47,129 nt of DNA from Candidatus Moraniibacteriota bacterium (GTDB taxonomy: Bacteria; Patescibacteriota; Minisyncoccia; Moranbacterales; UBA11712): contig JAPLXD010000011.1 in NCBI GenBank assembly GCA_026396255.1, positions 1-47,129 of the forward strand, in the 5' to 3' direction. Made by a program: the position numbers and the translations under genes. Shown piece by piece: positions 42,003-44,786 of this stretch. The stretch's first letter is position 1; each line of letters starts with the position of its first letter. The notes beneath the pieces were generated by a model. It was not told the origin of the DNA. It did no database searches and worked only from the letters and a program-made list of their open reading frames with translations.

Positions 42003-43574
42003 ATGTTTAACTTGATTTATAATCTTGAAAGTTGCCACAGTAATATACCACACATAATATATTACTCGCATGTACCCGTTATCATAGCCTCCCTCGCTCT
42101 CGGTATTTTTGTTTATTGGAGGGACAAAAAATCATTGTTAAATGTGTTGCTGTTTGTGTTGACCATTGATTTTTCTTTGTGGTCTCTTTTTGATTTAATA
42201 ACTTGGATAAGCTATGATAGCCGGATTATTTTGTTTTTTTGGTCATTGATAATCCCTTTGGGAATTTTTGTCTATGTTTTTGGGCTTTATCTTACTTATG
42301 TCTTTATAAACAAAAAAGACATCAATTTTTATTTGAAGCTACTTTTTTCCATTTTTCTACTGCCCGTATTTTTTTTATTGCCATCCAGGTTCAATCTTTC
42401 TGGTTTTGACGCGGCATCCTGCAACGGGTTGCAAGGGTTTATTGCAAAGCAATTTGCATACGGCGCTGAATTCGTCATTATCTTGATACTCATTATTTTT
42501 TCATCCTATAAAATCTACAGAAATAAAGAGCAATTTGAAAAAAAGAAATACACCTATTTTTCTCTAGGCCTTATTATTTTCTTAGTCGTGTTTTTCGTGA
42601 GCAATCTTATCGCCAGTATATATGATACAAATAATTTTCTTTGGTCTGTTTCTCAAGTTGGATTGTTCAGTGTCGCCATCTTTCTTTTCTTTCTTTCCTA
42701 TCTCATCGTCCGCTACAAAGCCTTTAATATCAAGCTCATTGGTACCCAAGCGCTTGTTGCCGCGTTGATCATTGGAATTGGTTCGCAATTCTTTTTTATC
42801 CAAAATACGACCAATATTATTTTGAATGGAGTTACTTTGGCATTGGTGCTCGGTTTCGGATATGTGCTTGTGAAATCGGTGAAGCTTGAGGTGAAGCGCA
42901 AAGAAGAATTGCAGTCGCTTTCTGATCAGCTCTCTGATGCGAACGCGAAGCTTCGCCAGCTTGACAAAGCCAAGTCGGAATTCATTTCCATCGCGTCGCA
43001 TCAGCTGCGCACGCCCCTCACTTCAATCAAGGGCTTTGGGTCCTTGCTTCTTGAGGGGACATACAGCGAAGTGCCCGAGGCGCAGAGGGGAGCACTGGAG
43101 AAAATATATATTTCCAACGAACGGCTCATCCAGTTGGTTGAGGATTTGCTCAATATCTCGCGCATTGAAGCGGGGAGGATGGAATTTGATTTCCAGGAAG
43201 CGCAAATCGACATCACCAAGGTCAAAGAAGTGATCTCCAATATGGTGGACAACTCGATCAAATATACCCAAAAAGGCGGAATCACGGTGAAATTGGAAAG
43301 CAATACCGATTGGGACACGGAGCACAAAGAGCATCAAAGCACTGTCCGCGTCATCGTTTCCGACACGGGAATCGGCATGGACGCGGAAGAAATTGGTATG
43401 ATTTTTGAGAAATTCCAGCGCGGGAAGCAAGTTTCGCACTATCACACCGATGGCACGGGTCTTGGAATGTATATCGGCAAGAAAATTGTCGCCGAGCATA
43501 AAGGAAAGATCTGGGCCGAATCAGAAGGGAAAGGCATGGGAAGCCGGTTCATTTTGGAATTGCCGGTGGGGTGA
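42003..43574 (+). CDS. Sensor histidine kinase with a ~290-aa polytopic membrane N-terminal domain
   Basis: Multiple TM helices and a coiled coil. H-box [16 protein letters not shown], N-box [9 protein letters not shown], G1 [14 protein letters not shown], G2 [13 protein letters not shown]. Confidence 0.85.
   Translation: [523 protein letters not shown]
43398..43574 (+). repeat. Direct repeat copy 1 (functional 3' end of the histidine kinase gene)
   Basis: 177 nt, collinear with 44577-44773 apart from a 20-nt insertion in the latter. About 86% identity by hand alignment. Confidence 0.9.
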
Positions 43575-43606
43575 TATTTTTCAACAGATGCGAAATCAAT
43601 GACCAA

Positions 43607-43634
43607 TTGACCGTTTTTACTAATATGGTATACT
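43607..43634 (+). promoter_or_regulatory. Sigma-70-type promoter of the Fic gene
   Basis: TTGACC-16 nt-TATACT in the 93-nt spacer after the kinase stop. Confidence 0.5.
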
Positions 43635-43667
43635 GCATATAATAGGCTAAACCATATTAAGAAACAC

Positions 43668-44786
43668 GTGAGATATTTGGACAAAAAACTTCAAAAAAGA
43701 ATCGATGACAAATTGATCCTGCTCAATTCGTTTCGTCCGCTTCCATCTTCCGCAGTCAAAAAACTCAAAGAACAATTTGAAATAGAAATGACCTATAACT
43801 CCAATGCTATTGAGGGCAATAGCTTGACGCTCAAAGAAACCTATTTGGTTATCAACGAGGGTCTGACTATAAAGGGAAAACCTCTCAAAGATCATCTTGA
43901 GGCAAAGAGTCACAAAGAAGCACTGGACTATTTATATTCACTGGTAGAAAAAGACAAAGAAAATACTGTGTCGGAAAGATTTATCAGATCGCTGAATCAA
44001 ATCGTGATGCAAGATGTTGACAAGGACTGGGCGGGAAAATATAGGAATAGCCGGGTGATTATCGGCGGTGCTGACCACAAACCGCCGGAAGCGTTGGAAA
44101 TCCCAAGATTAATGCAGAATCTTATCGGTTGGATTGACGACAATAAGAAAAAAATGCATTCGGTTGAATTAGCAAGTATTTTGCATCACAAATTGGTCTT
44201 CATTCACCCTTTTTTTGATGGAAACGGCAGGACTTCGCGACTGGCTATGAATATCATTCTGATGCAATCTGGTTTTCCGTTGGTGATTGTTTTGAAGAAC
44301 GACCGCAAAAGGTACTATCAGTCTCTGTCTTTGGCAGACAAGGGCAATTATATTCCATTTGTGAATTTCATTGCCAGGGCAGTGGAGAGAACGCTGGATA
44401 TTTATCTGAAAATATTGATGCCAAGCAAAAAAGGCAATGAAATATTTGTTCCTCTGGCGGAATTGGCAAAAAGCACCAAATTCACGGAAAAATATTTAAA
44501 TCTTCTAGCACGCAATGGAAAATTGGAAGCTCACAAAGAAGGACGCAATTGGCTTTCTTCAAGAAATGAACTTGCCATGATCTTCGAAAAATTCCAGCGC
44601 GGCAAGCAAGTTTCGCACTATCACACCGACGGCACGGGTCTTGGAATGTATCCGCCAGAGGACGGACAGGCATCGGCAAGAAAATCGTCGCCGAGCACAA
44701 AGGAAAAATCTGGGCGGAATCGGATGGGAAAGGCAAAGGCTCGAGGTTTATTTTGGAGTTACCGGTTTCCTGACAATTTGCTATAA
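43668..44786 (+). CDS. Fic-domain protein (AMPylase family) with an N-terminal inhibitory-helix motif and a C-terminal wHTH-like region. The last ~70 codons read into a kinase-gene fragment.
   Basis: Active-site [12 protein letters not shown] (44205-44240). (S/T)xxxE(G/N) motif SNAIEG (43800-43817). GTG start. From 44577 the ORF continues into a duplicated histidine-kinase 3' fragment ([25 protein letters not shown]) and then out of frame. Confidence 0.8.
   Translation: [372 protein letters not shown]
44577..44773 (+). pseudogene. Displaced, frameshifted 3' fragment of a histidine kinase gene (direct repeat copy 2)
   Basis: Encodes [25 protein letters not shown], then a 20-nt insertion (44652-44671), then in the shifted frame [33 protein letters not shown] (TGA 44771-44773). 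Confidence 0.85.

Follow-up and report, generated by a model that had tools for sequence, protein, structure and literature searches.

The stretch of DNA analysed here, referred to as the window, is the 47,129-nucleotide (nt) contig JAPLXD010000011.1 of a Candidatus Moraniibacteriota bacterium (assembly GCA_026396255.1), and our subject is a Fic-domain gene that lies in it between two diverged copies of the 3' end of a sensor histidine kinase gene. The genes of this region are all on the + strand: the histidine kinase, the Fic-domain open reading frame (ORF), a coiled-coil gene, a UDP-glucose/GDP-mannose dehydrogenase (UDPGDH) gene and a response regulator gene. The kinase stop codon and the Fic-domain ORF are separated by 93 nt, and the ORF at 43668-44786 codes for 372 amino acids (aa). 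We call the kinase end that is continuous with the kinase body copy A and the partial copy beyond Fic copy B, or the relic; loci from other genomes and assemblies are cited by handles (L005, L110 and so on). We found that the Fic gene is an insertion at the kinase 3' end and that one of the two kinase ends is of foreign origin, and we propose that the insertion displaced the resident end of the kinase gene. The features of the locus, with the evidence for each in brackets, are as follows.

42003 to 43574, + strand: sensor histidine kinase gene, 523 aa, with HisKA and HATPase_c domains; its last 62 codons are copy A (ORF; Pfam)
43210 to 43211, + strand: position of a 108-nt (36-codon) deletion that keeps the frame, within the kinase ATPase domain and bounded by ATCGA microhomologies (protein and DNA alignments)
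43389 to 43574, + strand: copy A, the kinase 3' end continuous with the kinase body, which would have arrived together with Fic (repeat search; dN/dS; drop in similarity to L005)
43575 to 43606, + strand: 32-nt spacer, with a counterpart only in the same-population contigs L110 and L111 (blastn-short against all fetched loci)
43607 to 43667, + strand: Fic promoter and leader, the start of the conserved Fic unit (promoter scan; alignment of five Fic loci)
43668 to 44568, + strand: native coding part of Fic, codons 1-300, GTG start, last 13 sense codons and stop gone (Pfam; homologues)
44568 to 44569, + strand: junction left by a 46-nt deletion, through which Fic and the relic share one frame (alignment with L110 and L111, which do not have it)
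44569 to 44651, + strand: first part of relic B, corresponding to kinase codons from about -61 to -35 (local alignment, repeat search, codon comparison)
44652 to 44671, + strand: 20-nt GC-rich insert CCGCCAGAGGACGGACAGGC, which breaks the kinase frame and splits the longest block of A/B identity (alignment)
44672 to 44773, + strand: relic B part 2, including the original TGA stop at 44771-44773 (repeat search, codon comparison)
44774 to 45190, + strand: native downstream context, with the TGCTATAAT extended -10 box (44779-44787) and the coiled-coil gene (flank homology with L007)
45265 to 47127, + strand: UDPGDH and response regulator genes, the conserved right flank of the hot spot (Pfam; synteny across L006-L017)

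Local alignment and a repeat search agreed that 43389-43472 corresponds to 44568-44651 (84 nt, 90% identity) and 43473-43580 to 44672-44779 (80% identity). The last 186 nt of the kinase gene (copy A, 43389-43574) are present again at 44568-44773 (copy B), with the 20-nt insert inside B. An earlier interpretation made from the letters of the window and its ORFs (the sequence-only reading) had reported that the kinase 3' end recurs after Fic, and this is borne out; it placed the start of the recurrence at 44577, which we correct to 44569. The frame-breaking insertion that it described at 44652-44671 is likewise present. This insert occurs once in the window and is identical in L110 and L111, and no second copy of it was found in the window or in any other fetched locus.

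A codon-aware comparison of 43395-43571 with 44574-44651 plus 44672-44770, insert removed, gave 27 differences in 177 nt, distributed 3/4/20 over codon positions 1/2/3 (binomial p = 2e-5). Twenty-one codons differ, 17 of them synonymously and four with an amino-acid change (G>A, E>D, M>K, G>S), so that the earlier hand count of about 25 differences, with 17 synonymous and 3 non-synonymous codons, was essentially right. By the Nei-Gojobori method the non-synonymous distance (dN) is 0.061 and the synonymous distance (dS) 0.84, a ratio of 0.07. The TGA stop stands at the same position in A and B, and their homology ends exactly there. Identity blocks are longest at 26 and 35 nt (the latter at 43452-43486), and both are internal rather than terminal. 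The two copies share 84.7% of their nucleotides, and each is 82-85% identical to the orthologues of other Moranbacteria species; they are equally distant from every available orthologue, and splitting both into parts 1 and 2 did not help to separate them. Because the dN/dS ratio is 0.07 and the A-B distance is at the level of orthologues, the codon pattern argues firmly that A and B diverged as working coding sequence in different lineages. The sequence-only reading had proposed such divergence before the copies were brought together, and the concentration of 20 of the 27 differences at third positions, rather than an even spread, agrees with it.

Two Logan contigs from other samples cover the locus, L110 (ERR15302196) from 43551 to 44863 and L111 (SRR20698641) from 43554 to 44701. 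L110 differs from the window by 6 substitutions in ~1.3 kb, and where they overlap L111 equals L110. In both, the end of A is followed by the spacer, by Fic and by relic B containing the same 20-nt insert, and L110 also extends to the start of the coiled-coil gene. In both contigs the Fic gene is intact, coding for 314 aa from an ATG start to its own TAA stop 0-3 nt before the relic. The window has GTG at the start in place of ATG, and a 46-nt deletion at 44568/44569 has removed CACTGAAAAGATATTTAGATGGCCGGGAGAGAAAAAGGATTTAAAG, which holds the last 13 sense codons of Fic and its stop. So far this deletion is seen only in the window and is absent from both other assemblies covering the locus. The sequence-only reading had noted that the Fic ORF runs in frame into the relic, which is correct for the window. 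The resulting tail does not belong to the design of the insertion: because L110 and L111 are without the deletion and have the Fic end intact, the Fic-kinase chimeric tail is the product of a later deletion. From these lesions, Fic may be attenuated or decaying in the window strain.

The great majority of kinase and Fic homologues belong to Candidatus Moranbacteria/Moraniibacteriota within the Patescibacteria. Among species-representative genomes the gene order is conserved, with prolyl-tRNA synthetase, a secreted protein, a GNAT, S-adenosylmethionine decarboxylase or membrane protein gene and the kinase on the left, followed by an optional coiled-coil gene, UDPGDH and two response regulators on the right. 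Syntenic relatives always have a single kinase whose stop lies 20-120 nt before the next gene, and Fic is absent. The empty-site arrangement that the sequence-only reading had suggested looking for, in which the kinase is followed directly by the coiled-coil gene, was found in L007, L009 and L016, where UDPGDH follows; in L011, L006, L008, L010 and L013 the kinase is followed directly by UDPGDH. The P0003 and P0006 loci were read as gene tables, and the former has the kinase, 100 nt and UDPGDH. The coiled-coil protein encoded directly after the kinase is 52% identical to that of the window in L007 and 41% in L009. Other genomes have at the kinase site a NUDIX gene, or a 131-aa gene plus NUDIX, with no detectable relic. 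Since these relatives have a single kinase and lack Fic, the locus is an insertion rather than the result of paralogue decay.

Which of the two copies is native was not decided by sequence affinity, and was decided only by comparison with the flank of L007. On its 3' side relic B has the flank TGA-CAATT-TGCTATAAT…ATGACAAAAGC, which corresponds by homology to the one after the intact kinase in L007, TAA-GAATC-TGCTATAAT…ATGACCAAAGC; both have the TGCTATAAT promoter and the ATGAC(A/C)AAAGC start. The 32-nt spacer 3' of copy A was sought in all fetched loci and matched only L110 and L111. Because the flank of B matches the post-kinase flank of L007 and the spacer of A is without such a counterpart, we infer that copy B is the resident end in its native context and that copy A, the spacer and Fic are the incoming piece. 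This supports the earlier view that the displaced original end lies downstream. As a separate observation, the first ATG of the coiled-coil gene (44786) overlaps the conserved TGCTATAAT extended -10 box. The true start is probably the second ATG at 44795, to judge from L007, which starts at the equivalent position. An exact look-up of the coiled-coil protein for other population variants found none.

The kinase upstream of the insertion carries a lesion and a mosaic of its own. It matches HisKA (1e-18) and HATPase_c (3.5e-24) and is 45-63% identical to its homologues; full-length homologues among the matches listed, from Candidatus Moranbacteria, are 544-597 aa long, compared with 523 aa in the window. 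Compared with nine of nine aligned homologues it has lost 36 residues between the dimerisation domain and the N-box, through a 108-nt in-frame deletion flanked by ATCGA in the DNA alignment with L011, L005 and L049. The sequence-only reading had called the kinase intact with a foreign 3' end; the frame is indeed open, but the gene is not intact, and the kinase may be crippled despite its open ORF. About 250 nt of the kinase (43140-43388) are ~95% identical to L005 7147-7503, flanked by parts that are 15-25% diverged, and the sensor half is saturated. Within 43257-43388 there are 2 mismatches in 132 positions with L005 and 18 in 132 with L011. Mismatch with L005, 1.5% in this interval, increases first to 7% and next to 24%, similarity being lost inside copy A, and the maximum chi-square breakpoint of the similarity lies at 43471. 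This L005-like tract inside a diverged kinase means that homologous exchange between lineages occurs in the kinase gene, and its near-identity indicates a recent inter-lineage recombination in the kinase core.

One position recurs in these comparisons. At the point 43472/43473 (equivalent to 44651/44672, and to L005 7587/7588 and 9373) relic B has its 20-nt insert, the L005 relic has its first base and the similarity to L005 has its breakpoint, and the point is the middle of the longest A/B identity block. It may be a crossover scar or a hot spot.

The Fic protein matches Pfam Fic at 7e-23 (81.7 bits, cut-off 24). It has the HxFx(D/E)GNGRxxR active-site motif, an N-terminal inhibitory SNAIEG motif and a C-terminal helix-turn-helix-like region, and the combination of an (S/T)xxxE(G/N) inhibitory motif with the Fic motif is that of class II (FICD/SoFic-like) proteins. 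The nearest solved structures are those of human FICD (3e-44). The best defence-system model is PADLOC SoFic (4e-36, profile positions 59-271 of 361), and with NCBIfam the SoFic equivalog scores 32 bits against a cut-off of 550, equivalog cut-offs not being reached. Homologues of 314 aa are 80-96% identical across Moranbacteria and adjoin CBASS, AbiE and nSTAND genes. The cargo is thus a predicted AMP-transferase of class II, FICD/SoFic-like, a type that occurs in islands of anti-phage defence genes. A scan of IMG/VR with the close Fic gave no phage match, and a scan with the Fic alignment gave one 37% relative.

The Fic gene has its own promoter. TTGACC-16-TATACT, reported earlier, is present at 43607-43634 with 10 of 12 positions matching and an upstream TG, and in an alignment of five Fic loci homology runs from the -35 box (ATTGAC, window 43607) to the stop codon. 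A perfect 9-nt inverted repeat, TAATATGGT (43621-43629) and ACCATATTA (43651-43659), straddles the -10 box. The repeat is partly kept in other Fic loci. It may be a candidate operator for the C-terminal helix-turn-helix region and serve autoregulation. Seven Fic loci have seven different contexts, and Fic is therefore a floating unit: an integrase/PIF1/CBASS island; ATP synthase and AbiE; glycosyltransferases and a nucleotidyltransferase; secreted-protein paralogues; GIY-YIG and an nSTAND NTPase; an AftD-like glycosyltransferase; and the kinase of the window. The island among these, L001 62-9205 in Moranbacteria, contains the large terminase subunit, a tyrosine integrase, a TM2 protein, PIF1 helicase and Fic, followed by CD-NTase, Cap15 (CBASS) and a SWIM protein.

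Four other Patescibacteria loci carry a displaced relic of the kinase 3' end. In L005 the order is kinase, DUF3800, a MazG-like gene, DUF218, a 35-codon relic and UDPGDH, and the stop codon of the last cargo gene abuts the relic, as in L110. L043 has the kinase, AbiEii, radical SAM, CYTH, an AAA ATPase and the relic. In L073 the kinase is followed by ATP-grasp and three other genes and then by a relic of 59 codons, in which 9 codon changes are synonymous and none is non-synonymous. L099 has a tandem kinase relic with no cargo (11424-11506 and 11579-11661, 83 nt, 80% identical, ~70 nt past the stop), which may be the scar of a lost insertion. Third codon positions account for 9 of 13 relic differences in L005, 6 of 8 in L043, 9 of 11 in L073 and 11 of 20 in L099. 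The relics of the five loci start at codons -62 (window), -60 (L073), -36, -28 and -20. As in the window, the copies in L005, L043 and L073 come from functional genes of different lineages.

A similar bracket occurs away from the kinase. In L109 the Fic unit lies between the copies of a diverged 47-nt repeat (89%, 4068-4114 and 5145-5191), which is the 5' end of the downstream nucleotidyltransferase gene; the relic copy stands against the stop of the upstream gene, next to the native upstream flank. A 169-nt repeat around Fic in L112 was considered as a further bracketed case and found to be the shared N-termini of two tandem secreted paralogues; its differences fall 5/2/7 by codon position with no synonymous bias, and the case was counted as ambiguous.

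The window insert, 43389-44568, has nothing in it but copy A, the spacer and Fic. Domain searches of this insert and of what L005, L043 and L073 carry as cargo found no recombinase, nor was one present at any of the five relic loci. A repeat search of the window found no terminal inverted repeats pairing the ends of the insert, and across the five relic loci no identical core stands at a fixed position on both ends as attL and attR would. A transposon, an insertion sequence (IS) or a miniature inverted-repeat transposable element (MITE) was rejected as the source, there being no terminal inverted repeats and no transposase, and the flanking repeat being 186 nt long and 15% diverged. Because the insert consists of a gene-end fragment and one gene, with no recombinase, terminal inverted repeats or fixed core, neither an integrase-type element nor a transposon is visible.

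We propose, with a probability of about 0.6, that DNA of a diverged relative integrated by homologous recombination, most simply of the Campbell type, and displaced the resident kinase end without a site-specific integrase. The incoming DNA of ~1.2 kb, from a diverged Moranbacteria relative, would have carried ~62 codons of the kinase end, the 32-nt spacer and a Fic gene that is self-contained from its own sigma-70 promoter through its stop codon. It would have entered through host homologous recombination, by a single crossover of a circular or circularised molecule into the kinase 3' end. The crossover would restore the kinase frame with the foreign end (copy A) and shift the resident end (copy B) beyond Fic, still attached to the native downstream promoter and coiled-coil gene. 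Copy B would be dead through the 20-nt insert, and the window lineage would later have acquired the 46-nt deletion fusing Fic to the relic and the GTG start. A direct duplication flanks the insert, with A continuous with the gene and B with the native flank, and the Campbell-type event is favoured because a direct duplication around an insert is the product of a single crossover between circle and chromosome. In a study of homology-facilitated illegitimate recombination in E. coli, 56 of 60 events were duplications of a homologous segment (109-950 bp) from a single crossover with a circle (PMC3240628). [quoted passage not shown]

Several points weigh against this proposal. No donor arrangement, in which the kinase is followed by Fic without a relic, was found, and neither was a circular form. 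A native copy B was predicted to continue the L005-like tract of the kinase body, and this failed: B1 matches L005 at 73 of 84 nt and B2 matches the L005 relic at 75 of 102. More than one replacement therefore probably occurred, and a single clean event is insufficient. A and B are only 85% identical and no identity block between them exceeds 26-35 nt, which comes close to the minimum for an efficient homologous crossover. In the window/L110 and in L005 the cargo stop and the relic start are 0-3 nt apart, a closeness that random circularisation does not predict. The triple coincidence at 43472/3 could hint at a site-specific process, and an integrase could have been lost from all five loci.

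The last two points lead to the remnant of an integrase-driven island, in which an attP site carried a replacement kinase end and of which only Fic survived a later deletion of the integrase and the remainder. A foreign end, cargo and a displaced end are the classic product of such elements, deletions of 46 nt and 108 nt are known at the locus, and in the prophage-like defence island L001 a distance of 2.8 kb separates a Fic homologue from a tyrosine integrase. The relic starts of the window (-62) and L073 (-60) nearly coincide, and the site 43472/3 was used three times. We nevertheless consider this origin unlikely: the window insert and L005, L043, L073 and L099 are free of a recombinase, the intact Fic stop abuts the relic in L110/L111 and leaves no space for lost genes, and the relic starts vary between loci around no conserved identical core. 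The sequence-only reading had favoured an integrative element, and on this point we depart from it, the insert being fully accounted for. Rather doubtful as well is a one-sided, homology-facilitated illegitimate recombination of a transformed linear fragment, anchored in the kinase and joined at its far end at microhomology. The junction TAA|AGAACTT does share 2-5 nt with the kinase GAAGAA, CPR bacteria can be competent, and the mechanism has been proposed for T6SS and Rhs displacement; however, a true one-sided event should remove recipient DNA, single crossovers with circles were the source of the duplicated homologous segments (PMC3240628), and a donor with Fic already directly after the kinase would be needed.

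The remaining alternatives are far less probable. Two tandem kinase paralogues, the second decayed and Fic gained independently, have a precedent in the distant loci L034, L062 and L069, where two kinases lie nearby. Yet all syntenic Moranbacteria relatives, in which the sequence-only reading would have had two complete tandem kinases count against insertion, carry one kinase with the coiled-coil gene or UDPGDH directly after it, the relic begins right after the Fic stop, and A and B diverge at the level of orthologues; we regard this history as highly improbable. The same holds for a chimera assembled from two strains and for a local duplication that then decayed. Repeats can cause false joins in metagenome assemblies, and an assembly join had been raised earlier as a danger, but the same junctions occur in two independent Logan assemblies from other samples, so that a chimera is excluded, and the Fic/relic junction and the kinase share no k-mer. 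A local copy that had decayed neutrally during half of the divergence would show a dN of ~0.4 against the observed 0.061, which excludes local duplication with decay.

Homologous integration at the kinase end, if it holds, admits a broader and quite tentative extension. Small accessory and defence genes of Patescibacteria might move as integrase-free, 'address-tagged' cassettes, in which an end fragment of a highly conserved neighbouring gene serves for entry into the orthologous site of diverged lineages through host homologous recombination, and the direct repeats for looping out as a circle, with the kinase end as a recurrent docking site and 43472/3 as a preferred junction.

Two further observations concern the window outside the insertion. 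It has two GNAT acetyltransferase paralogues, at 39311-39835 and 41401-41934, where relatives with a detectable GNAT (L006, L010) carry a single one; the paralogue immediately upstream of the kinase resembles an additional insertion. A 54-nt direct repeat (12357-12410 and 20778-20831, 80% identical, the first ~30 nt nearly identical) holds the palindrome CAGCCAAAGGCTG…CCAGCC..GGCTGG and may be a terminator-like repeated element.

CPR/Patescibacteria have tiny genomes with few classical mobile elements, and the ways in which they acquire accessory and defence genes are poorly understood. The locus offers a dated, sequence-level example in which a single defence-type gene from another lineage came in with no integrase and left a displaced gene end as a scar, and the same type of scar occurs at the kinase in distant lineages and at another Fic locus (L109). 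If this is general, gene-end relics could offer an easy way to trace, by computation, recombination-driven gene flow and its hot spots in uncultivated bacteria, and the significance would be higher if gene-end-tagged cassettes proved a general, reversible mode of gene flow in Patescibacteria. The finding reveals no new molecular machine and is akin to Rhs/T6SS displacement, Campbell integration and minimal mobile elements.

C-terminal displacement in Rhs/CDI loci (Jackson 2009, as cited in PMC5361080) resembles the window in that a homologous stretch comes in together with new downstream genes. In the displacement of V. cholerae T6SS effector-immunity modules (Kirchberger 2017, PMC5361080) a gene is likewise rebuilt with an incoming end and the old end is orphaned downstream. 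As in the Rhs, CDI and T6SS cases, no integrase is involved and events repeat at the same locus. These systems swap a variable toxin tip and its immunity gene, whereas the window swaps an ultra-conserved kinase ATPase tail of no functional novelty; here the cargo is an unrelated defence-type gene and the host a CPR bacterium. Campbell integration that duplicates lacZ ends (PMC3240628) leaves a direct duplication on both sides, and the 186 nt of the window fall within its 109-950 bp. Unlike those duplications, the copies in the window are 15% diverged and the donor came from another lineage, and the circle is here a proposed one. The cargo, a predicted AMP-transferase, shares with SoFic and FICD the active-site motif and the SNAIEG motif (SoFic 4e-36, FICD 3e-44), and differs in being truncated at the C-terminus and fused in the window and in scoring below the NCBIfam equivalog cut-offs.

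Integrase-mediated islands and prophages that use the 3' end of a tRNA or protein gene as their target bring a replacement for that end with them. Like them, the window has a regenerated target gene, a displaced partial copy and empty sites in relatives; unlike them, it has no recombinase and no fixed core, its cargo is a single gene of 1.2 kb, and relic length varies. Saunders and Snyder reportedly described 'minimal mobile elements' in Neisseria in 2002, and integrase-free defence hot spots lie between core genes in E. coli and Pseudomonas. Both are thought to swap their contents by double crossover in the two flanks, with no duplicated gene end. The kinase-UDPGDH site, which holds nothing, the coiled-coil gene, NUDIX, DUF3800-MazG-DUF218 or Fic depending on the genome, resembles minimal mobile elements as a fixed site with varying small cassettes and no mobility genes, and the window differs from them in that one flank is duplicated.

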